Origin: Vermamoeba vermiformis
Taxonomy: Eukaryota
Direction of reading: 5' to 3'
NCBI GenBank assembly: GCA_045837725.1
Contig: JBEWZL010000078.1
Coordinates: forward strand, 120,225 to 140,224
DNA: 20,000 bases
Position 1 is the stretch's first letter. Each line of letters begins with the position of its first letter. Made by a program: the position numbers and the translations under genes. The notes beneath the pieces were generated by a model. That model made no database searches. It saw only the letters and a list, made by a program, of their open reading frames with translations, and had not been told where the DNA came from. Below, in pieces: positions 1 to 20,000 of the stretch.

Positions 1-1002
1 GTGTTCGTATACTTCCGCAATCACCCGAGGGAGATACAGCCCACGTGACGGTAGATCTCGTGTTGGAGTTGATGCGATTGGCTGCCACAAGGTCCGAGGA
101 TGAATTGGCGCAAAGTCAGATGGAGTTGCCAGTAGTAAGTCAGAATATTGGTTCATGAACGCAGTTGCTGAGCTGTTTTTAGCTGAACGAACATCACGTG
201 CTTGTCCCCGCCAGTCACGTGTTCATTCGTGATCGACACGTGTCACACTTTCAAATCGACACTGCCGTGCAATTTTTGCACTGTGAGGTACGTCATTCTC
301 GTTCACTTGCCTAATTTGGTCCATTAAATCTTTGCAAAGGTATCGCGTGACTTAGGTCTCGCACTGGGCGTGCAGCTCTTCAGTCAAATCATCGAAGAGC
401 GAGTCGTGTCACACGTGACGGTCGAGAGTTCGCAGCGTGTGGCCGACGAATTGCTGCAAAGTCATCGAGAACTGCAGGAGATTGTTGCGCGCCTTCGTTC
501 ACCAATGTTTGCCGATGTTCTGGCGCTAATTCTCCGCGCTCAGAATCCTACGCTGAGCGAGCTGACCATTGCGCATTCAGTGAATCAAATTAAGAAGTTG
601 CGCGTTGTTTATTGTAGCGAAATTTCAACACAGCTCGTAGATCGGCGGAACAATTCTGTGTTGTCCCAGTCACGCGTCAATACCGCAATGTTAGTGCAAC
701 AGGATCAAGTGCGTGGCGACAAAGATTCACTTAGTAACTCTCGCTGACATGTTGTATTAACAGATATATGTGGCGAACAAACCTCGCTTCATTCGCTGGT
801 CAGATCTGCTGGCGCAACAGCTCAACAAATTTTTGAATTTCATGTTGACCGATCTGCTCTCACTGAGCGCAGTTCTGAATTGTGAAGAGAGGTGAGCGAT
901 TTGATTTGCAAACTATACAATCATTTTCATGGGGTACTAATGTCTGTAATTAGGGACATGATCGCGTGTTGTCTTGCCGTTGAGACTTCGAGCCCAAAAT
1001 AG
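1..1002 (+). CDS. 3' part of a spliced gene, sacsin-like repeat-region protein (5'-truncated by the window edge)
   Basis: Exons ~1-134, 183-287, 340-708, 764-891 and 954-1002 join in frame across GT-AG introns. The translation includes ELPVLNEHHVLVPASHVFIRD...QFLHCEVSRDLGLALGVQLFSQIIEE, which resembles the LPxxxxxLxPAxxLxxxD...FxHxxISxxLAxxLGVxxLS segment of sacsin-like proteins. The last exon and stop are uncertain. Confidence 0.55.
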
Positions 1003-1361
1003 CCGTTCAAATCATCGATCGCGGCATGAATTCCTTAATGTGAAGGTGGTTGCTGTGGAGCAAATGAATAACATGATTGATAGTTCATGAAGGGCAGCTG
1101 AGTCGTCGACCGGAACAATTTCTCAGATATCAGATCAACTCATTAAAATCGTCATTTTCTACGATGCGTTGGCCATTGAAACACTCCCTACTATTATGCT
1201 CAGTAATTGTTCCGCAACCACTGTAAAATATGAACAGATCCACACACAACGGAGCAATTTGCGAGGATAAATTTAAATTTACGTGTTTTACGTTGCGGTG
1301 CCTTTATTATCAAATACGATGAAATGACGAACACCGAGCTGAGCTCAAAAAAATATTACAA

Positions 1362-4300
1362 ATGCAATTGATTAGGCTACTGTTTCTAATCACGTTATTA
1401 TCCACCCTTAGTAAGTTCCATTGCGTCGGTCACAGCGCAGCTTATCTTACTCACCGCTAGCTATAGTCAGTGCGCAACAAATTTGCTTCGGATCCAGCCA
1501 ACACATTGTACGGCGACAAAGCTCAGGTAAAACTTTTTAATTCCGGTGCTTTAGGATAATTTAACACTTATCTCGCCACGAACAAATTGGTTCAGGTGTT
1601 ATTCAATTGATAATTGAATAGAATTCGCGCGTGTAAATTAAAAACGACATTTTGCATATTTATTGAAAATAACGCGTTGCTAGAATATTTTCTCAAACTT
1701 CAAGTCGATTTGGAACAGCAATTGCCTGGATATATCGTAGAATATGCAATATCAATCAGCAACACCTCTTTCGCTACAGCGTGGACTTCCCTCAACGAAT
1801 ACCAGCAGATTCACAACGTTACAGTCTATTTCAACTACTCGCTGCCCACCAATGTAGATATTTATGCAGCATTGCGAATTCGTCAGCAAGGCAACGTAAT
1901 TAATTGGAGATACACCTACTCTGAGTCGATCAGAGGTACCTTGTGGTTATTAATTGCTTAGTACTCCGTTGAAACTGCGTTGTTTACTTTCAATAATAAT
2001 ACTAATAATATAATAGTTGGCGACAAATTACCGTCTGACGCACCCTGCGACGAGGTTTGGGCCCCGACGAGCGGATTGATCTCCCCACCCAAGACACCCA
2101 TGCTGCAAGTCTATTTTGACTCTCGCAGCGGCACGGTTACCTTTCAACTCACCGCGCAATATCTGCTCGGGGGCTACACGTGGGTAATTGACTTTCAGCC
2201 GTTCATGAACAACGTGACTGCGGGCCAGTACGGGCTTGGCGTCACTTCGTGTGAAAATCGAGACAGCAGTGCGCTGACAGCACGGAATTTCATTGAATGG
2301 TGGAACTGCGCGCCTGCTGCTAATTACAGCGCTGCTATTAATAGCCCTGAGTACTTGAGTTACTGGCCTGGTCCCAGGTACTGTTGCTGCCACTGGACTT
2401 TGACATTTCTGACACCTGTCACAGCTCACCCTGGACGCTCGAACCAGTCACATGCGGATCAGTGCGCTACACCATGGCCAGTCCCTTTGCTCGCGTGTCA
2501 ACGTGTCAAACAGCGAGTGGCACTCCGGCCGTGTCATACGTCGATTTGACCACTGGTGACGTGTTGTTTTATGGTACGTGACCAATGGCGTGCATTGCCC
2601 TGCTTAATCGCTGCTATTTTTAGGCACACTGTACGTGACGGCTGTGCGACCAATCAGCGTGCTCGATCAGTCACGTGGGTATCAGAGCTATGCGAGTTCT
2701 ATTCCCTTTCAATGGACGTACAATGTCACCAAGCCAGTGACACCTGTCATCAACGCGCCTGTCACTTTGACACCTGTCAACAACAACAATGCGACGAGTG
2801 CGGTAATCATTGCCCCCGAACTCTTGCCCGCGATTGTTATCCCCGCAGTGATTGGTGGTGTCGTGTTGACACTTGGCATTGTGGTCAGTGTTTGACACTT
2901 TGGACACCTCGGACTGTAGTTAATGACTATATTTAGGTGGCTGTCATGGCGCGCCACAAATCAACGCGCGGTGCGGTCAAAAAATTGTTTCACAGAAATA
3001 ATTGTTCCGGGGCTCGTGACCTGAAGAAGAAAGCAGAACCCGTTAGTAACACTAATAGCAGTGGCAATGTGCCAGGTACGTGCTGTCGAGTGCAGTGTCG
3101 GAATATTTGGCGCTAAATATAGTCAGCAGATGTGCCGCAGCCAGTGCTGGAAGCGAGTGTCGCGCCCAATCAGGCAAGTCACGTGACAGTAGTGGCTGAC
3201 AACAACCCTCCCGTCGAGCACCCCGCCGCTGAGCCAGCACCACCCCTCTCTATTCCTAAAATAGCTATCGGCGAGATCTTGGAGATGGTGAATCGAAATC
3301 TCGATTTTGCCGCGCAAACCGCGGGCACGGAGAGCGAGGACGAGATGGACGCGTCAGGCACTCTCGAGCACAGCGAGTCACGTGACATCCATCGCTCTGA
3401 TTCGCCCGTGCAGCACTCCCCCGTGTTCGAAAAAGAATTGATTTCGCAGGACTTGGTGGCACCTGTCAGACACAGTCCGCACCGCTCGACTTTTGCCTCG
3501 CCCGTGAACTCGCCCAAGCTCAAGATCAATCGCACTGGCACTGGCACGTACTTTGCACTAATTCACCGCAATATTTGAACTAATCACGTGACTGCAGAGG
3601 GACTACGATTGAGTTCAGTGAATTCAGCCCAGGGCAGCAGTCTGCGCTCCTCTTCCGACATGTCTGCGCGCCGCGACCAATCCGACAGTCCCAAAAGTGC
3701 AGTGCTGTGGAACTCGCGCAACAATTCACTCGTCAGTTCGCGACAGAATTCCAGGAAACATTTGCCGCGCAAAGACAGTAACGGCAAGTACACGGCGGTA
3801 TATTCGATGCGTTGCTCATGTATTTAATGGACACAGTGCTGCTGAGTGGTGTGAGTGAACAGTTGATCGAAGTCAGTAAGTAACTAAAAATAGCGCCCTC
3901 AGCTGACACATCTAACGCACTGGTTCCAAGAATTCAACGTGTTTGGTCGACCGTTGAGCGAGGTCGTGGACAAGAACAAACAGCTGCCCATCCTGCTCGA
4001 AGAACTCACCGAGGGCCTGCTCAAAGCTGCGGCATCGCTCTCACAGCTCGGTAAGTGTCCCCCTAGTGTACCTCGATAGTGCGCGTATTGATCGAGTCTG
4101 CAGAGCTGCGTCAAGTGTTGTGCAAGTGTTTTGAACGACTCGATGTGGAGGTCCGAGCGATCAAGCGCGACATCAGTCTCTGTACGTGCCACGTGCCTCT
4201 GTGCTGTCAGCTGACTCTTCTTCATTTGCAGGTGACTTCGATCAGTTGAGTGCAAATATTCCCGTCGCCCTCACGCTGCTCGTCGATTACTTTGCAGATT

Positions 4301-6272
4301 TGCCCGCAGCACTGGTGCCACTAGCCACCCTCACGGACATGCTCGAGGCAATGAGTACGTCACGTGCGCTGTTGCTATTTATAGACACTAATTCTTCGTG
4401 CGCAGAACTCGCTGCCGTGCCCGACTTCCAATTCGAGCTGCAGCGCAGTGCATTGCTGTCGCTGCCCTACTCGCACTTCAAAGTGTTGGCGCGCATGAGT
4501 GAGTTCGTGCACCGCCTCACTGCCCTGCTCGCTGACGATGACACGCGTCAATCGGTGTTCTCCAAGGCCTGTTACCGATTCGGACTGTGTTTCATACAGC
4601 AGTACGTATTGATGGATTGCCTTATAAGGACATGTCATCTAACGAGCTATTTTTAGTGCCTCGTGTCTCAAGTCGAGTGCGGTGATTGACGGCAACGAAA
4701 AGATTGCCAAACAAGTTGCCAGCACGTGTCAAGTATTCGAGTACATTGTCACGCACCGCGAGCGACTCTTCAATGTAAGTCCGTGATCTCATTCAGTGAA
4801 TACTGATCGCTCTATTTTTAGCTGCAACTCACTACCGAGCAAACATTCACGCAAAAAGATGAAGCACTCTATTTGGACACGAGCTCGCGCGATGCACTGT
4901 TCAAACTGATGATCAATCCGCATTACAAGGGTACGCTCTATATAGACCGATCGATCTTTGCGCAGTAGACTCATCGCGTGATTTCAGAGCAAGATTTCTT
5001 AGAAGTGCTCGCCTTTGGAGCAGGCTACGTGTTGAGTGCCACCAACTGGTTCACGCAGCTGATTGAGTGCTACAACGCACTCGGCAACACCATCGCTGCA
5101 TTCCAAGTGCCCATCAAACTGCGGTAATATACAGCAACAGGTCGCTCGTTTGAACTAGCAGCTAATTCGACAACAGCATCTTGACTATCTTCGAGGCGTG
5201 GCTGAAGATGAACAAGCGCGAGTTGGTCTCAGAGCGCGAGGCCGTCAAAGTGTTGTGCAAGTTCCTGCAACACGAGACCAACAGCTCGCCGCACGTGCAA
5301 GTCTTGGTCAGCTCGCTCAATGTGCTCATGCTCACGCAGACCAAAGTTGTTCCGCTGCCCTCGAGCTCCGTGCCCCTACTCGTACGTACCACTCGAAGCT
5401 ATTTTTAGCTGTTTGACGACTGACGCGTTCGACAGGTGCCAAATATACGCGAAGACTTCTCGATCTACAATTTTTCGACCAAAGAAGTGGCCCGCGAGCT
5501 GTGTCTGATCGATTGGAGTCTGTTCAAGGAAGTCGATCCGACCGAGTGCAGCCACAAGCGGTTCATGGAGGCACGTACTGGCGGTTATTTCTTCAAAGCC
5601 GCTGAACGATTCAACAACATCAATGCGTGGGTGCAGTACGAGATCCTTCGATTAACAGCTGTCAAAGACCGTGTCACGTTCATGACATTTTTGGCCGAAG
5701 TAGCTTCGGTAAGTAACGCCAATTCAGAGAACAGCTAATTCAGTGAATAACACGTATGCGCAGGAATGTTTGAGTATGAACAACTTCAGCGCTGCACTCG
5801 CGATATTTTGTGCCTTCAATGCAACGCCGATCATGCGACTCAAAGACACGTGGCAGGTAAAAATTCGGTTATTTCCGAATGTGGCGATAGAGCGATCCTG
5901 ACTCCTTATCAGAAATTAAGCCTGCACTCCAAGAAGCAGCTGCGACAGCTCGCGTACGTGTTCTCGATGGATTCGAACTACAAAGTCTATCGCAAGACCC
6001 TCTCACGTGCCACACCGCCCATCGTTCCTTATTTAGGTCTGTACGGCAAGTACTTGTTCTCCATTGAAGAGAACGTCGAGTCCCTGACCGACGATGGCTT
6101 GGTGAATACGGACAAGCTGTACAAATTGTATTATATCGTCAAAGAGATCCGCTCTTATCAACAGATCGGCTATGAATTCAAAAGCAACAACGACCTGAAT
6201 AGATATTTGTTGAACATGGTCACTCTAACTGAACAAGAAGCGTTTGAGCAGTCACTAAAATTAGAGCCCTAA
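1362..6272 (+). CDS. Multi-exon type I membrane protein: signal peptide, extracellular domain, TM helix, Ser-rich linker, degenerate RhoGAP, RasGEF (REM + CDC25)
   Basis: ATG at 1362 gives the signal peptide MQLIRLLFLITLLSTLTIVSAQQ after splicing 1411-1460. TM segment LLPAIVIPAVIGGVVLTLGIV|VAVM is followed by basic ARHKSTR (~2821-2970). RhoGAP-like VFGRPLSEVVDKNKQLPILL...LLVDYFADLPAALVP spans ~3940-4770. REM-like ALFKLMINPHYKEQDFLEV...LRILTIFEAWLK follows. CDC25 hallmarks: FSTKEVARELCLIDWSLF, FNNINAWVQYEIL, MNNFSAALAIF, SNYKVYR, PPIVPYLGLY, SLKLEP-stop at 6272. Confidence 0.88.
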
Positions 6273-6856
6273 TTGTGGCGTTTGTAAAATAAATTCAGGG
6301 TTGCCTCTGTCATGACTCAGAGAAGAACAACAAACACACAAAGCATGGGTGATGTCGTAGTTAATTTCTTCGATCTCAAAAGTGCGTTGGAAATTCAACC
6401 GTACACCATGCCTAATGGCACGTTCAAAGTGACCAATATGTGGTTCAAAGTCCACGTCGCGCGTTCAGACTATGATTGGTTGGAAGCGTCCTGATGAGGA
6501 AAAACAATCCCGAGCCAAACCCAAAATATTGCGATTGATATGAGATACTTCGCAGCACTCGCGGCTGCGACCATTTAAAAGATAAACGTTTCTTTGTTAT
6601 TTTCGTTTGAAACGCTACCGCATTCATCTCAAACATCTGCCGAGCCGTTGCTTAGGTATCGCTAAATTTACTATGTAAGCCGTTCTTGATCAACGAACAG
6701 TGTAGAGGGTAAATAGTGTTAACAACAATAAACGTTTCATAGTAGTGTTATGTTTATGCGAGTGCTCGTCACATAAACTACGCGTGTTTATTCCTTTCTA
6801 AAATGTGTGTTTTGGTTCATGAAACGGTACATTTTTTAGGGATTATTCCCAGACTC

Positions 6857-9169: not shown

Positions 9170-9312
9170 AATTTGGATAGTAATAAACAGATTGAAAATG
9201 TCAAAACAAAAAGTGGAAACATTTTTGGGTGTCAAATATTTCATTTTTGCTTGTCAAATTTGTTTGGTATTAACGACATAGAAATTTTTCACTTTTTTGT
9301 TTACCTTTTACA

Positions 9313-11922
9313 ATGAGCAAGCAGTGTATAGTATGTGGTGAATTTTATGATGAATGGCCTTCCCACACCAAGAGTTATAAACATTCAAAAGCTAGTGACA
9401 ATGCCAAAGCAATCAAGCAATATCAATTACAGCGATCTAGTAACACTAATGTTAGCACTATTAATATAGTGGAAGAAACAAATAATATTGAAGAAGAAAA
9501 TGAGACCATTGAGCAAATGGAAATTGAACAAGATATAATATTGGAATATTTTCAAGATCCTCTAGAAAATACCCAACCAAAAAAACTCAAATCTAATGTG
9601 GTAGACAAAATACCTACTGCTGTAGTTCCTTTGAATTTTACAGAAAAAATGCTGTTGTGTTTACAACAAGAACACAGTCTTTCTGAAACTTGTTTTAACA
9701 AGTTAATTGATATCTTAAAGCATAAAGACTTGAATCTTGAGGATGTTCCAGCTAATTTCAAAGCTCTTAGAGACAAATTTGAAGAATTCTGTTTTGAAGC
9801 TGAAGAGTATTCATTAACCAAAGAAAATCAATCGGAAATCACAGTTCCAGTCTTTTCAATTAAAGATTATATCTCTTATATCAGAGAAGATCAAGATATT
9901 ATGGATAGTCTCTACCTTAACAGTAAATTTGATGGGAAGAATTTTGACTCAGTGAGAAGTGGCAGTGCATTTATGTCGTTTATAACCAGATACAGAGCTT
10001 CTAAAGCTAAGTGTGCAATTGCATGTAAGTTAATAGTTGAAATAATGTCTATTAACACTTGTTTAGTGGAATACTATTATGATGACACTAATCTCACCAA
10101 AAACCAGTCTTTTGGTGTATTTTATGTGTGTGTCTCTAATTGTCCTGGCAATATCAAACGGAGAATGAATGTGAAATGGCCATTTTGCATTGTTCCAAAA
10201 ACTGAAAAGCAAGCAACAATCACCCAACAAGTAACAGATATTTTAGTCACTCAGTTGCAAGAGTTGCAGGAAGAACTTCAAGGCCAAGTCCATGTTGAAT
10301 TGTTGTTAACAATTGGAGATATTCCAGCCTCAAATGAACTTGTTGGAGTCAAATCTCAATCAGGATTAAAGGGATGTAGAACATGCACAATGGAAAAACC
10401 ATTTTATCCAACAAGTACATTTGCATTGAAGAGAAACAAAGATAGTGCCCAGCAAGTGTATCAATCGTTGGTAGGCCAAACAAAAACAGCTCAACAACAG
10501 ATACTTAAGAAAGGGCACACAAAGCATAAGGTAAGAAGTAAACTTACATGTTAGTTGAATACTTAGTTACTGCTTACAGACACCCCTGCTCAAATTGCCT
10601 TATTATGACCCATTTGCAAGTAGCCCAAATGATATACTCCATAATGAATACTTAGGCAACTTCCTTTTACACTTTGAGCTTACTTTAAAGAAGTGTGACC
10701 ACAAAGACATTTTACTATCTCGCATTGAAAGTTACCCTGTCATTCCAAAGCTGAATACAAATGATAATGCAAGAAGTCGGTGGGTAGCGAAAGAATGGGA
10801 GCAATTAAGCACGTTCATTTTGATAGTGCTCAAAGGATTAGTAGATGAAAACAGCTTGCAGTGTTGGTAAGAATATTATTTTACTGCAATAGATCTGACA
10901 TCTTACTGATTTAGGAAACACCATGTAGCATATTTACATATTCTGAATAAAAGAAGTGCAGATAGCACAGAGCTAAACAGTATGCAGCAAAACTACATGG
11001 ACTGGAGAAAGAAAATGGTGGAACTTTACCCACAAGAGGCTTTTGAACGTCTAAACTTCCATGTTGGGTGCCATTGGCTTGAAGCCATTAAAAGGTAGGT
11101 TTAAATTAGCTTTAGTTCTTTCTTAGTGTAAACATTAGATTTGGTATGCCTCATGAGTTTTCAACTCAACGGTACGAAACCAGACATAAGGATTTGAAGG
11201 CTATGTCAAAAGTAACCAATTATCACAATCTCTGCTTTGATGTTGGTCGTAGATTAATGTTGTCTATGTGTTGCATAAAGAAAATTGGCACTTTGGATGT
11301 AAGTATATACTAGCATATTTACTAGTTAGGCAAAGTTTAGGAGCTGATAGGTTGAAACTAGGAAGTATTAACTCCTGTCAAGGAAGTTACCATCAACTCT
11401 GGGATAGTAGTTGGCTGTTGCACTATCCGGAACAGACAGAAAAAGATAAATATACCTGGCTACATTAAAGTACTTCTTCGCTTGGAAAGTAAGTACCTCA
11501 GTTTTTGTGCCCATTAACTAAATGATGTAGAATCTCTTCCACATGACTTTCTGCAACAGTGCTCACATAAGATCACTCCATTCAAGTCAGCTCTTGTCAG
11601 AGATGAAAATGTTGGAAATGGTGATTTTGTTAAAGTCATTCACGAAAAAACAAGCCATGTTTATGCCAAGATCAAGATGATTTTCCAGATTAAAATTGAT
11701 TCATGCTCACAATTTTTTGTGCACGTCAGAAAGTTTGATATACTCAATCCTTTGCACCCTCTTGATAAACATCTCGAGCTTGAGGCATTAAAGAAGTGTT
11801 ATCAAGGTCTTTGTAGGCTAGAAGATGTGGTGGAGAAGATAAGCATTGTCAAGGATTTCACAAGTGAAACAACATACTTAGTGAATTGCTATGCAAAACG
11901 CAATTTCAAAGAATTATACTAG
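9313..11922 (+). CDS. DDE transposase, CMC (CACTA/EnSpm)/Plavaka-like, ~773 aa, apparently intact
   Basis: Exons 9313-10024, 10067-10530, 10580-10866, 10915-11094, 11139-11298, 11362-11488 and 11531-11922 give one open frame. Motifs: N-terminal CxxC..H..H zinc finger (CIVCGEFYDEWPSHTKSYKH); YYYDDTNL..FGVFYVCVSNCP..KRR; IGDIPASNELVG..GCRTC; PNDILHNEYLG; LNFHVGCHWLEAIKRFGMPHEFSTQRYETRHK; C-terminal GDFVKV..YAKIKMIF beta-rich segment. Confidence 0.85.
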
Positions 11923-12160: not shown

Positions 12161-12568
12161 GGAGGGTCATCATCCAGAAAGATGCGACCTCGTTTGGCAT
12201 AGGAGGTCGTCGTCCAGGAGGATGCAACCTCGTTTGGCAAGGGAGGTCGTCGTCCAGTAGGATGCAACCTCGTTCGGCAAAGGAGGTCGTCGTCCAGGAG
12301 GATGCAACCTGTTTCGGCAAGGGAGGTTGTCGTCCAGGAGGATGCGACCTCATTTGGCAAGGGAGGTCGTCGTCCAGGAGGATGCGACCTCATTCGGCAA
12401 GGGAGGTTGTCGTCCAGGAGGATGCAACCTCATTTGGCAAGGGAGGTCGTCGTCCAAGAGGATGCGACCTCATTTGGCAAGGGAGGTCGTCGTCCACGAG
12501 GATGCAACCTGTTTCGGCAAGGGAGGTTGTCTAGGAGGATGTGACCTTGTTTGGCAAGGGAGGTTGGA
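12161..12568. repeat. 40-bp minisatellite, ~10 copies, each unit self-complementary
   Basis: Consensus GGAGGTCGTCGTCCAGGAGGATGCRACCTCRTTYGGCAAG, with units starting at 12202, 12242, 12282 and so on. First and last units are degenerate. Confidence 0.97.
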
Positions 12569-14738: not shown

Positions 14739-17700
14739 ATGCAGGCCACGGCATCCTTGCAGCCCTTGTCCCTCAAATCCAAGGTCGACATTTACCTGAA
14801 CTTCTTGGTGAAATCGAGAAATCGAATGTGGTTCGACAATAACTTCGCCGACTTGCTCGTGCGTCAGATTCAGCTGTTTCCGAAGTGGATCACGCGCGAA
14901 GACTTCATTTTCTACTTCGTCTATTTTGCCTTCCACAAAATGCTGCCGCCATTAGTACTCGAGAAAACTTACTATCCGACTTGGTACTTCGCATACCGGC
15001 AGAAGATAGCGGACTCTCTCGCGTTGGATGTACGCAGTCAACCTTGGGCCGATTTCAGCACAACATTCAACGCATTTCCGTACCGACTGCAAGCTGCAAT
15101 GCAGCTGTGTGCCGTGCGTGGCACGAGTCGCACGGTTATATCCGGAGCAGAAGTCCACTCGCAGTTTTATTGGCTTTGGTGTGCCTTACGGTACAAAATG
15201 TCGTACTGGCAAACGGACCAATCGTTGCGAGTGCTGTTAGACGAGCTCGAGAAAGAAGAGGCTACCTGCAATTACGACTCGCCACTGTTCACGTTGGATC
15301 ACAAAAACTACCTCGCTCCTCCTCTACTAAGTATGTTCCTTCCTTATATATTATCATTATATATTATCATTATTAATCTAACTCAGAGATGCCCCCGCCA
15401 ACCTCAGCTACTGTGTCAAAAAGCCAGCAGAAGAAGAACGCTAAGGCCGACGACGCCAAAGTTGCATTCGAACGCATTGGCTTCGTAGAAGGATGCAATG
15501 GCGTAGGCGAGGGATGGTTTCATCCCGCGCAATTTGAAGAGGCTCGGGCAATTTACGTGGTTGCAAGCAAAAAGAGGAAGATCTCGAGCGGGAGCAATTT
15601 GTCAGAAACCACCCAAAAACGAAGAAAAGTAAGTTTTAAGCGAAAGAAAATTTTTTTGAACTTACTAAATCAAATTAGATCGTGCACGAGAGTGAACAAG
15701 TAGAGTTTTCGGTTGATCGAGAGGTCGAGATCGCCGAATCTCAGCCGTTCGATGAACCAGCAAGCCCAATTATACACTCTATTGGTGAAATGCCCGTAAG
15801 TAATTATTTTTGTAATTATTTTTATAATCTAAACGCGTCTTGCTTAGGATTCACCGAACATACCCGCATCTCCACCAACATCTCTTTCTGTGTCCTTTTC
15901 CGAGAAGAGCCAGAAACAAAAGAGTGCAACCTTACAAGCATTCGAAGACTTGATGGTAACAGATGTACGCCCGGGCGAGAGTGACGCTCTATTGTCGACT
16001 CTTGCGTCCTCACCCAGTGTCGCATCCGAAAGCCTTTTTTGGCGCATCGATACAGTAGACATACGCGATACGTTATTACAAACAATGGCTTGGGTAAGTG
16101 CGTCGAATTTCTAACACTCCTCACTAACACAATTGAAGTACAAAGATCGAGACACTTTCGAGTTTCGCTGGACTCCAGATCTAGAGGCACTTGTCGCTGG
16201 ATTGCCTGAAGACCAAGCTCATGAATTAATTCTCAAAAAATATATCGTAAGTTGGCGTGTTAATTTAACTCCCTGATCGATAATAATCGGCTTTGTAGGA
16301 AAAGACAGCAACGCTCGATCTGATTTCAACGTTAGGACTTTATGTAAGTAACTCTGATTATTTAGCTGGAGTTAGGTCACGTACTAACATCTAGTAGCCC
16401 AAAACAGGACGCTTAAAAGCCTATTTAATGGCTAAGCAACTGTGGGACAGGCGCAATCCACCACCTTTCAGTACCGAAGGTTTCTTGTCCCTACCGAACG
16501 ATTGCTGGCTAGGCCTCATTTGGGATCTCATCGACACACCAATGACTCTTGCGGCACTTACGCAAACATGCCGGCAGGCGTTATTCATGGTTTGTGCGTG
16601 TTTTGGGGTGTGCCCGTCCTGGCAACGTTTCAAAGTCTTTGGCAAGTACGCACACCTCGCCATCAAGTTCAACATCCTCAAGCACGAGCGAATAAGCTGC
16701 TATCACTTCAATCCCGATACTCTTCGCACATTTATCGACTCGGGGTCGTTCACGAACTTGCGCGAGGCACACTTTCATCGCTTCACCCTGACACCAACTG
16801 ACATCGCCAAAGTACTTCAAAATGGTACCACCATTCGTTCGCTAGCTTTTCATGGAACAATTTTAATCCCAGATCTGGACCCCAGCTTTGATCAGATGTA
16901 CGGAGATACGAATCTAAAAATTTTATACTTACTAATAGTTTCTTAGGCTTACTCAAATCCGAGCGCTGCAAATAACCGAACCCAATGCCACGTCCAAGAA
17001 AGACCGTCTTCCTGTGGCGCAGTTCCTGATTCCCAAACTTTTCCCAAATCTGGCCGTACTTTCGCTACGAAACATGACTTCAGCCACACAAACGTACCAG
17101 TTACCGGCAACACTATCTACAACTCTACTCTTTGTGGACTTGCGAACAACTCAGTGGGTCAACAATTTTTTTGGATTTCTAAAGCTTCGCAATCCGACAA
17201 CCACATCCGTCTTGCAAGAGCTTTATCGGCTGATGCCAAATCTCCGTGGGCTACGCATACCATTAGCTGAGCGCACTACAAAAGAAAAGAAGGTGGTGAG
17301 CGTTTCCTTTCCGCCCCCACCAGCTTCTCTAGAGTTTTTGGAACTTTTTGGATTTGCCGATCAGGACGTAGAACTTAATCTTTGGGAGGTGGACATCGGC
17401 AAAAATCTTAGGCATATAAGTTTGGTGAATATTTTTATTCGCCTAACTCAGAGGCCACCTTCTCTACCTCCTCCGGACTACGCCGATGATTTTGGTCTCG
17501 ACCAGCGGTATTGGGTCTTATATATTGGCGGCACCGATCACAAGATCAACCGTCGTATTTTCGAAAGCATCGTACGACAGCAACCGTAAGTAAAATACTA
17601 GCTGCGGATGGCGATTTAGCTAACTTGATTAATTTAGTTTTTCGTGGAACTACAAAGAGGGCGTACAACCACGCCTAATTAACTCGCCAAATATATTCGC

Positions 17701-17953
17701 TCGACGGTACGACATTGCCCAAAAGGTAGCAACTCTTGGCTACACGGATTTGGAGAAGAAGATCCTCACCGAGCGAACTTCGGGTTGCCCAGTTTTCATG
17801 CCTGCCGTGCCCGACTTTCAAAGAACGTCAATATCAATTCAAGGAGAATACAAGTTCCTGATGAACACTCCAGGCGTGTTCGTTGTGAACCGTAACGAAT
17901 TTGCTCGCAAAGAAGATTTCTTCCTGCCGTTTATAGCGGCCGATCGTTACTAA
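14739..17953 (+). CDS. Multi-exon F-box/LRR-like protein with long unknown N-terminal region, ~930 aa
   Basis: Nine exons join in frame (introns ~15331-15386, 15629-15678, 15796-15847, 16094-16138, 16247-16298, 16344-16397, 16898-16946, 17586-17637). F-box-like FLSLPNDCWLGLIWDLIDTPMTLAALTQTCRQA at ~16482. LRR-like units follow: FTNLREAHF, FPNLAVLSL, MPNLRGLRI, SLEFLELFGF, NLRHISL. NLS-like KKRK and KRRK. The true start may be in an upstream exon, since 14739 directly follows an AG. Confidence 0.7.
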
Positions 17954-18095
17954 ACTTCACATAAATTCGACCAATCCCGGAGCCTTCCACTTTTTGGTTC
18001 AGCACTAGTTTTTTGTCCTCCCCCAATTTATCCACTCTTTTTGTACCGAGCAACACAAACGAGAGTAAGTACCGTAAAATATAGTTCAAGGATCG

Positions 18096-19946
18096 ATGTC
18101 CTTGATGGGTAAGCACGGAGCTTACCTTAGGCAACGTTCTCCGTCTGCGTTGGAGGGAGAACGTTATTTCTGAATCTCATTAACACCATGTATTTGTTAG
18201 TGGACGTTCTGCGTACTGTTGAACAACTGGCGGCCAAGCGAAACAATAAATCCAGTCACGTAACCCGCACATCACCTCCTGGCACTAGATCCCGTTCAGG
18301 CTTGAAGCGACGACGAAAGCTCTCGCCTTCTGTTGGTTTTACACCAAGACGCAAGAAACAGAAGGTTTCTGATGGTGCTAAAGATAACCTGGAGGTAAAA
18401 TCGGTGAACCTCAACCGGAGATTTTGGCGCTCATTATTTAATTTCTTTTTTTAGAGTCCGCTGACTCCTCAACCCACGCCTCCCCCCACGACCCCTGTTC
18501 GTTCGGCATTGCCACGACAAGCAAAAGTTAACCGGCCTCTTACCTACGAGTCTTCACCTGAACCAAGCCAAAGCGTTCAAAGTGGTGAATCCTCGTTGAA
18601 CGCTATGAGCGAGGAAGAAGAAGCGGCCTCTGTTGACCTTGAAACTGCAGATCTTGCAAAAAAAGATTGGGCCGATCTCCGTGCGCAGGATCAACCAACA
18701 CGTTCTGACGAGGAGTTCGTTGCCTCAGAGGAACTGGACAATGGAGATGAAGAGGGTGATTATGAGCCTTCTGAGGGGCCTGCTTCATCTTCGTTCGGCA
18801 CTTCGAAGAGCTCGCTTCGATCGAACAGTCTTGGTCAGGCAAGTACTACTCACAAAAATTAAGTTTTATAGCACCTATTAATATTTACGTTAGGACGACT
18901 CTGCTATCGGCGAGGAGGGTGATGAAAATCTGTCCGAGTTGAGCAACATCTCGGAAGAATCCGCATCTGATTTTCCCGAAACTGCCTCCAGCGTGCCCGA
19001 GCCTCCTGAGAACCACTCTATTGCCAACAATGCGATTACCGTCAACAAAGGTGCCCAAGGCCATGTTGAGAAAGCAGTTGTGGAAGCGAATGCGGATGCC
19101 GATGCGACCGCGGAGCACAGAATCGACTTCAACGTTGCGAAAAAAGGATCATGTACACTTGTATTTCACATAAATATTCACTAAGAGTGTTTATTAATCC
19201 ATTGTTTGTTGTTTAGCCAAAAGTTCTCGATCAGATGAAGTTCGGCAACAGTTTATCGGCAAGCTACTCGAAGTTATCGATAAGTTGCCCGAACACGACA
19301 TTAAGTTGCGAGTGTTGCAGACTTCAAATGGGGCCTCGTTACAGGCAGTGGTGTGCAACGCTGACGAATATCCGCTGAGTCAACATGCGCTTGTTGACAT
19401 AGAAAACATCAAGCGCGAGGTGATCAAAGCACGCGAAAAGGAGGCTACAGACTTCGGTAAGTTTATTCTATAATATGATATTATTCATCTTGCTTACGTG
19501 TATCGCAGACGGCGTACCAGCCTCTGTCATGAACGCCATCCGCGCATGTAACTTCTCGGACGTATTATATCAGAGTGTAATGAACTCTGAGAAGCAAATA
19601 CGTGTCGAGGGTTTCGACTTAGCGCTCGTTGGTCTGAGCAATTTAATTGTCAGAGACATGCTGCCGATTTCGAATGAAGACACTAATGACATGATCATCT
19701 CGCGCATCAACCGTGTCCTCAAGCGGCTAACTACAGTCGCAACGATGCAGCTAGATGGGGTTAGGGTTAGGGTTAGGGTTAGGGTTAGGGTTAGGGTTAG
19801 GGTTAGGGTTAGGGTTAGGGTTAGGGTTAGGGTTGGGGTTAGGGTTAGGGTTAGGGTTAGGGTTAGGGTTAGGGTTAGGGTTAGGGTTAGGGTTAGGGTT
19901 AGGGTTAGGGTTAGGGTTAGGGTTAGGGTTAGGGTTAGGGTTAGGG

Positions 19947-19969
<23 letters not shown>
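18096..19969 (+). CDS. Spliced hypothetical nuclear protein (basic NLS-like, then acidic/Ser-rich disordered, then helical region), truncated by or fused to the telomere
   Basis: Exons 18096-18108, 18201-18393, 18455-18838, 18894-19152, 19217-19456 and 19509-onward are in frame. Contains KRRRKLSP..PRRKKQK. The last exon ...RLTTVATMQLDG continues into (GTTAGG)n with no stop until 19967-19969. Confidence 0.7.
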
Positions 19970-19987
<18 letters not shown>

Positions 19988-20000
19988 GGTTAGGGTTAGG
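19758..20000 (+). repeat. Telomeric repeat (TTAGGG)n, ~40 copies, G-rich strand pointing to the sequence end
   Basis: Uninterrupted TTAGGG array to the window end, with one TTGGGG variant (~19833) and one TTTAGGG variant (~19965). Confidence 0.99.

Follow-up and report, generated by a model that had tools for sequence, protein, structure and literature searches.

Ras-family guanine nucleotide exchange factors (GEFs) normally reach membranes through separate receptors and adaptors. Plexins combine a sema ectodomain with a short juxtamembrane link; they are GTPase-activating proteins (GAPs) that turn Rap off and also bind Rho GTPases. Sec12, a transmembrane (TM) GEF, is an endoplasmic reticulum (ER) protein and a beta-propeller GEF for Sar1, without a CDC25 domain. 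SOS, RasGRF and Epac have a REM–CDC25 core and are cytosolic, being recruited by adaptors or second messengers and lacking a TM helix, according to the available part of PMC1273635. The closest described proteins are from Dictyostelium: three combine RhoGAP and RasGEF domains, and one of them, GflB, binds RacE, Rac1A, RacB and Ras and is directed to the cell periphery by its N-terminal part (PMC4865317, in part). GflB is also described as a G-alpha2-stimulated, Rap1-specific GEF (PMC5997169 and PMC8369479, both in part). Here we describe a gene at positions 1362–6272 of a 20,000-nucleotide (nt) stretch of the Vermamoeba vermiformis genome (contig JBEWZL010000078.1, positions 120,225 to 140,224, forward strand; hereafter the window), in which a signal peptide, an ectodomain and one TM helix are joined in one expressed frame to a GflB-type cytosolic module. 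We read its product as a single-pass receptor GEF for Rap or Ras controlled by clustering, with ligand, gating and GEF activity inferred, and give this reading just short of an even chance.

The gene product would share the plan of plexins, single-pass receptors that act on a Ras-family GTPase directly through their cytosolic part (PMC3787391, in part). Unlike plexins, it has a CDC25 GEF, a zona pellucida (ZP)-like ectodomain and a linker of ~250 amino acids (aa), and no homology connects the two; Pfam analysis of its orthologue found RasGEF and RhoGAP only, and neither a sema ectodomain nor the split RasGAP of plexins.

A single expressed gene

The gene consists of 21 exons that splice into a frame of 3720 nt, encoding 1239 aa with no internal stops, and an in-frame stop precedes the ATG at 1362. 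RNA contigs from four runs of four studies (labelled X1, X5, X6 and X7) were aligned on positions 900–6800. The contigs are short-read assemblies and the RNA nature of the runs was only guessed; the argument is carried by the exactness with which introns are skipped and by the unbroken frame. The listed contig joints cover 15 of the 20 introns, and introns 4, 7, 19 and 20 were deduced from the coordinates of consecutive contig pieces. Intron 1 was placed from X5 record 2 (58 + 53 letters upstream, with a compatible bin depth of 2.34) and the N-terminus of the orthologue, and by depth arithmetic the X5 contig extends to ~1358.

X1 record 1 (3688 nt) covers ~1498 to 6320, from the ectodomain through CDC25, and matches exactly the modelled spliced length of 3688 nt. 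X6 record 8, of 2650 nt (~2523 to ~6020), links the TM helix, the linker and CDC25. Bridging from the TM helix to CDC25 in one contig was present in two of the four runs (X5 covers 3328–5684 only, and X7 is fragmentary). Also the orthologue, P0005 of a JGI cluster, has the whole arrangement: its 1231 aa are 79% identical over aa 3–1239, with a matching layout and an N-terminus that starts alike. Its longest contig, 3768 nt, is intron-free, since that length leaves no space for introns.

A sequence-only reading of the window had proposed one spliced frame from signal peptide to RasGEF, and had located a possible boundary between two genes at ~3080 to ~3930. The single frame is borne out by contigs of two studies and by the orthologue. 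No two-gene transcripts split at this region were found; the X1 and X6 contigs cross it, and introns 8 and 9, both GC–AG, fall inside it. GT–AG alternatives for these two introns were rejected, the joints matching GC–AG. That a membrane-protein gene and a soluble RasGEF gene are neighbours wrongly joined by the reader or the assembly is hardly credible. Such an error could be suspected from the short-read origin of the contigs, from several orthologue-cluster records that end early, one of them at intron 9, and from the closest paralogue, L112, which has a separate membrane-protein gene ~290 nt upstream of it. However, the stop-free frame and exact length of the contigs, and the full-length orthologue, rule out a split at 3080–3930. 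Furthermore, the shorter cluster members terminate where five different introns (5, 7, 9, 10 and 17) begin, a pattern compatible with partial splicing and with introns at conserved positions, and not with one special break.

The transcript was found in runs labelled as at least seven organisms, as expected of a common co-cultured or contaminating protist.

The cytosolic module

The RhoGAP–REM–CDC25 order ascribed earlier to the cytosolic half stood, with the qualification that the RhoGAP domain is degenerate and that the REM domain was missed by Pfam. Pfam RasGEF (PF00617) matched the orthologue with E 2e-43 (148.8 bits), three window exons were each above the cut-off, and the best PDB match was 2ije (E 1.6e-34), followed by SOS1. 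Pfam RhoGAP (PF00620) matched the orthologue with E 9.6e-7 (29.2 bits, above the cut-off of 24.5), over profile positions 47–146 only. The corresponding window piece stayed below the Pfam cut-off, the exon-by-exon Pfam analysis of the window gave RasGEF only, and a homologue search with the RhoGAP piece gave no match. The REM domain, undetected by Pfam on the orthologue, was found with a hidden Markov model (HMM) built from the own genome, which scored 17.9 bits for the region and 25.2 for the orthologue, against at best 5.2 in 500 shuffles.

The RhoGAP-like domain has no EG[IL]FR motif, which carries the arginine finger, and the Lys/Arg of its second motif, LK..LREL, are replaced by Val/Ala; because both are missing, the domain probably acts as a binding module rather than an active GAP. 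The finger position falls on Lys668 in the MAFFT alignment and on Cys683 by eye against GflB, and Arg679 lies near it and could be matched in an ungapped register.

In the helical hairpin of the CDC25 domain, the equivalents of F929, L938 and E942 (in numbering that we take to be that of SOS) are Y, F and E, and the usual Asp is Tyr. Among 33 own-genome loci, 15 gave a hairpin, and 13 of these hairpins have the Asp, the exceptions being the RhoGAP–RasGEF paralogues L111 and L112. These changes raise the alternative of a catalytically dead receptor-scaffold, whose GAP and GEF domains would tether or sequester Rac/Rho and Ras/Rap without turnover. It would account for the altered equivalents of 934–936 and 943–944, for the degenerate GAP and for a REM domain below Pfam detection, and we consider it unlikely: the F929-, L938- and E942-equivalent residues are retained, CDC25 is the most conserved part of the protein (91% identical to the orthologue), and the loss of the Asp is common to L111, L112 and, by eye, GflB, which is reported active.

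By sequence, the cytosolic half is a GflB-type module of pseudo-RhoGAP, REM and CDC25. It has the domain order and spacing of GflB (with GflD and GefD), in which the three domains lie at 649–836, 851–983 and 1021–1255 (PMC4865317 supplement). Also the degenerate GAP motifs, the missing hairpin Asp and the long low-complexity region preceding the domains in GflB are similar, this likeness being based on a by-eye comparison. The GAP and hairpin changes do not rule out activity, since neither the finger motif nor the hairpin Asp is seen in GflB. In contrast to the gene product with its signal peptide, ectodomain and TM helix, GflB is peripheral and targeted by lipid, G-alpha2 and actin binding, and it has a ~350-aa C-terminal extension that the gene product is without.

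Within the genome, the RhoGAP HMM matched five of the 61 predicted GEF proteins, including that of the gene under study. Four further genes, L111 (C184), L112 (C109), L113 and L170 (both C123), have RhoGAP-like and RasGEF domains, and no TM helix was seen in them. In a FastTree analysis of 59 CDC25 domains, comprising own-genome domains and the orthologue, the gene grouped with L112 (0.98), and then with L113, L170 and L167 (0.94). Upstream of L112, at ~290 nt on the same strand, lies a type I membrane-protein gene (L112:6480–8250, minus strand) with a weak ALTTAQ-repeat match and a short tail. L112 was considered as a second receptor-GEF and rejected; by eye, neither of the two nearest acceptors joins it to the TM gene upstream in an open frame.

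The linker between the TM helix and the RhoGAP-like domain had no Pfam match and holds six SP/TP sites. Identity to the orthologue in the cytosolic part was 29% for aa 411–462, 92% for aa 463–487, 82% for the RhoGAP-like domain and 87% for REM. The conserved motif at aa 463–487 is a candidate binding or autoinhibitory helix.

The ectodomain and the membrane helix

The signal peptide and TM calls were based on hydropathy and charge. The TM helix has a Kyte–Doolittle maximum (KD19) of 2.68, with no Lys/Arg in the preceding 15 aa and five in the following 16, and the intron 6 joint inside it is visible in three of the four runs. A cleavable signal peptide, one TM helix, the positive-inside charges and conserved luminal sequons agree with a predicted type I single-pass topology. 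The ectodomain, earlier put at ~350 aa, does carry Cys and N-x-S/T sites, and proved shorter: its folded part is ~290 aa, followed by a stalk of ~30 aa. All seven ectodomain sequons and likewise five ectodomain Cys are kept in the orthologue, from which a further one, C23, is absent.

AlphaFold2 (AF2) modelled the orthologue ectodomain from 42 sequences as two beta domains, with a mean predicted local distance difference test score (pLDDT) of 81.9. For domain 1, pLDDT was ~50–80 and the best VIA Z 7.7, with many FN3 rows, which is at common-fold level, and the fn3 leads in the ESM Atlas scored 0.83 or less. Domain 2 had pLDDT >90 across most of its length. In the two-domain model, human ZP2 ZP-N was the only VIA row confined to domain 2 (Z 5.4, tied with antibody rows; root mean square deviation (rmsd) 3.5, 105 aligned), and Foldseek gave the ZP-N fold with E 5e-3; matches to domain 1 and to antibodies dominated both Foldseek and the wide VIA comparison of this model. 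Domain 2 is thus modelled as probably ZP-N-like. Its Cys 131, 199, 251 and 268 are near-invariant across the family, and Cys218 is found in eight of the eight orthologue-cluster members checked and in none of the 41 other aligned family members. ZP1-N1 forms a covalent dimer through a non-canonical Cys (10.1101/591966, in part), and by analogy Cys218 is a candidate inter-chain disulfide. The ectodomain matched no Pfam family, ZP included, and against PDB sequences its profile gave only one chance match (E 0.35).

An R-Q-[ST]-S motif at aa 31–36 (1491–1508), close behind the signal peptide, recurs in the orthologue and the secreted paralogues, and is a possible propeptide cleavage site.

Identity to the orthologue was 42% in the signal peptide, 78% in domain 1, 76% in domain 2 and 80% in the TM helix. 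The ectodomain is therefore under constraint, its 76–78% far exceeding the 29% found for the variable linker. These values bear on an alternative in which the ectodomain and TM helix only confine an active GflB-type GEF to a particular membrane domain (adhesion site, cup or vacuole), in place of the lipid-binding N-terminus of GflB. Regulation would then be internal, by linker phosphorylation, Rac/Rho-GTP or G-alpha. The long low-complexity linker with its six SP/TP sites, the targeting of GflB to the cell periphery by its N-terminal part (in the available text of PMC4865317) and the truncation of the ectodomain relative to its family all speak for such an anchored enzyme. We regard it as possible, although somewhat unlikely: two folded domains conserved at this level, in which all sequons and also the newly gained Cys persist, exceed the needs of a plain anchor, and sorting through an extracellular partner would shade into the receptor reading.

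The parent family of ZP-fold surface proteins

By homology, the ectodomain is the truncated front half of a secreted, GPI (glycosylphosphatidylinositol)-like, ZP-fold surface-protein family. Six loci of the genome are paralogous to domain 2, namely L013 and L015–L019 (on C263, C213, C306 twice, C272 and C30), and encode secreted, GPI-like proteins of ~640 aa that all continue into further domains. Five of them, with sequence examined, have a KRS/KR-type site followed by a hydrophobic tail, and no cytosolic part. Introns 2–5 are common to the gene and the secreted paralogues in position and phase, each junction being present in two to five of the six, and homology ends at aa 327 (blastp against P0016), where the stalk starts. 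At C84:90497–90865, a segment resembles only the C-terminal part of the family.

The basic site and the exposed stalk bear on a reading in which the GEF is activated by proteolysis, shedding and intramembrane or linker cleavage freeing the cytosolic module. The stalk and the long linker would suit it, and the parent family looks processed, with a KRS-type site before the tail. We find it very unlikely: that site belongs to the part lost from the gene, and release would remove the GEF from membrane-bound GTPases.

An exhaustive ectodomain search found 45 relatives, one of them an orthologue fragment. None of the 45 had Pfam RasGEF or RhoGAP, and the TM-bearing ones have short tails. One relative comes from Acrasis kona; its AF2 model (pLDDT 80.8) gave ZP proteins in all top seven VIA rows (Z 9.5–12.4), the best being ZP2 ZP-C (Z 12.4, rmsd 3.3, 134 aligned) against 8.4 for the best non-ZP row, and Foldseek also gave uromodulin, endoglin and betaglycan. 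The ESM Atlas gave ZP leads, under the Atlas bar, and features there place relatives also in diatom clusters. A metagenome scan with the orthologue gave no match, and with P0003 one 37% fragment.

Endoglin and betaglycan have short, non-enzymatic tails. The parent family resembles ZP-module proteins (ZP1/ZP2 ZP-N repeats, uromodulin, endoglin and betaglycan) in its ZP-C-like C-terminus, basic site and hydrophobic tail; the gene itself probably resembles them in domain 2, which aligns with ZP2 ZP-N, and its extra Cys recalls the ZP1-N1 cross-link. Unlike these proteins, it has no Pfam ZP match and keeps one large (~200 aa) ZP-N-like domain without a following ZP-C, the ZP-C-like fold being confined to the parent family. 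By the tests applied, the gene product is not a ZP-module protein. According to a 2026 review, ZP-like domains belong to animals and to unicellular holozoans (PMC13361971, in part), and a literature search on ZP-N or ZP-module proteins in amoebae showed, among the matches listed, no paper holding these terms. ZP-fold proteins here and in Acrasis kona, beyond holozoans, are notable in themselves.

Occurrence of the architecture

The 115 exon-level RasGEF matches of the genome were hand-grouped into about 65 loci, and a small gene finder was applied to 64 of them, with C3:287164 excluded. It yielded a CDC25 protein at 60 loci, and a signal peptide with an internal TM helix was found only in the gene under study; L117 had one weak N-terminal segment. 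The gene finder was tuned on the gene under study, which makes its recovery of 20 of the 20 introns circular, and many 5' ends were lost, so this absence is weak evidence. With a looser setting, L122 (C302) gained a C-terminal hydrophobic segment (KD 2.99), which may be a merge with a neighbour, as that setting merged neighbours at L112, L124 and the upstream gene of the window.

A search with the cytosolic part of the orthologue gave, among the best 8000 candidates, 20 distant GEFs for which no RhoGAP or TM family was listed, which is likewise weak evidence of absence. Literature searches found no transmembrane or receptor Ras/Rap GEF among the matches listed, transmembrane-GEF phrasing matching COPII/ER work, and the available text of PMC1273635 describes no membrane-spanning RasGEF, its Figure 1 legend mentioning TMHMM segments. 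The earlier expectation that a type I membrane RhoGAP–RasGEF is not a common architecture held in these searches, no other RasGEF with signal peptide and TM helix being found in the 60 RasGEF loci, the 45 ectodomain homologues or the literature.

A proposed clustering-controlled receptor

Both halves of the gene derive, as judged from sequence, from paralogous families within the same genome, so that the way in which domain fusion creates a receptor can be traced. In the gene, a GPI-like, ZP-fold glycoprotein has contributed its front half, consisting of signal peptide, FN3/Ig-like domain and the probable first ZP-N-like domain, which is fused to a GflB-type module. In the receptor reading, the ectodomain would dimerise, perhaps covalently via Cys218, and bind a surface partner, either the ZP-like coat proteins of the cell itself or a substrate or prey surface. 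Binding would cluster the protein at contact sites, where local concentration would raise GEF activity without a rigid conformational relay; because of the ~250-aa low-complexity linker, signalling by clustering or localisation is expected rather than direct allostery. At rest the GEF would be restrained, with the aa 463–487 motif or the pseudo-GAP as candidates, and the pseudo-RhoGAP may bind Rac/Rho-GTP without hydrolysis as a second input. The output would be GTP loading of Rap (likelier) or Ras, leading to adhesion, uptake or motility. A precedent is the single-pass plexin, which controls a Ras-family enzyme domain through dimerisation (PMC3787391, in part). Also in favour of this reading, differences between the runs and the genome were synonymous in 14 of the 24 codons, against 23% of possible changes.

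Several points weigh against this reading. The linker uncouples the ectodomain from the enzyme, the preference for Rap over Ras is by analogy, and a Ras GEF domain gives the top match in the PDB. In the hairpin, the Asp is replaced as described and also the Gly-Asn after the E942-equivalent is changed; the RhoGAP domain looks catalytically dead, and by the tests applied the gene product does not appear to be an active RhoGAP. The ZP-N match of domain 2 is weak alone. ZP-C and other polymerisation elements are lost from the gene, which makes co-polymerisation with a coat doubtful. The 23% expected for synonymous changes takes no account of transition bias.

The proposal of a receptor-like RasGEF was upheld in its architecture and as a single gene, by contigs of two studies and the orthologue, and the one-component coupling of a ligand to Ras/Rap stays an inference. 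More tentatively, with a confidence clearly below even, the protein would be the first single-pass receptor with its own CDC25 GEF, having a disulfide-linked ZP-N sensor for the cell's ZP-like coat or for a contacted surface, and a pseudo-RhoGAP coincidence input (an 'anti-plexin'), and would represent a new receptor class. It would then be an activating counterpart to plexins, with plexin logic of the opposite sign, and ZP-fold coat proteins would have been recruited into signalling receptors well outside animals. For protists without the animal wiring of receptor tyrosine kinase, Grb2 and SOS, a chain with both ectodomain and CDC25 would be a direct shortcut from surface contact to Ras/Rap.

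Features of the gene and the surrounding window

Table 1. Features of the gene, with positions in the window
Feature	Position	Strand	Basis
Start codon and signal peptide, aa 1–19	1362–1474 (exon 1 1362–1410, intron 1 1411–1466, start of exon 2)	+	Hydropathy; orthologue start
Domain 1, FN3/Ig-like beta-sandwich, aa 37–121, exon 3	1684–1935	+	AF2 of orthologue, VIA, Atlas
Domain 2, probable ZP-N-like, aa ~123–327, exons 4–6	2017–2733	+	AF2, VIA, Cys columns
Cys218, receptor-specific fifth cysteine, candidate inter-chain disulfide	2307–2309	+	Family alignment
Pro/Thr/Asn-rich stalk, aa 328–356	2734–2820	+	blastp against P0016 ends at aa 327
TM helix, aa ~357–381, split by intron 6 (2884–2936), then basic stop-transfer segment	2821–2948	+	Hydropathy
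Low-complexity Ser/Pro-rich linker, aa 382–635 (254 aa)	2949–3872	+	Composition; bridged by X1 and X6
Conserved linker motif, aa 463–487	3246–3320	+	92% identical to orthologue versus 29% for aa 411–462
GC–AG intron 8	3544–3597	+	Joint 3542–3597 in 4/4 runs; intron ends
GC–AG intron 9	3784–3836	+	Joint 3782–3836 in 3/4 runs; intron ends
Degenerate RhoGAP-like domain, aa ~638–845, exons 11–15	3933–4765	+	Pfam on orthologue
Divergent REM (RasGEF_N), aa ~866–985, exons 16–18	4873–5342	+	Own-genome REM HMM
CDC25 RasGEF domain to stop codon, aa ~1005–1239, exons 19–21	5454–6272	+	Pfam, PDB match
Helical hairpin, aa 1156–1175	6018–6077	+	Alignments

The window is a telomeric contig end in an intron-rich genome of 43.3 Mb. 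Telomere repeats, (GGGTTA)n, occupy 19757–20000, and ~13.5 kb separate the gene from the end of the chromosome. Upstream of it, a spliced gene at ~70–1200 (plus strand) is covered by contigs in three runs that join ~890 to ~952 and end before 1300; its part 328–744 had no Pfam match. Downstream, at 9274–11922 (plus strand), there are AT-rich, intron-broken open reading frames that resemble a DNA-transposon transposase; 9277–10551 had no Pfam match. A tandem array of ~30/60-nt GC-rich units follows at 12170–12560. At least two subtelomeric spliced genes are present at 14739–19755 (plus strand), one with stretches resembling F-box and leucine-rich repeats (16400–17950, by eye), and the second acidic and Ser/Pro-rich, with a frame that extends into the telomere.

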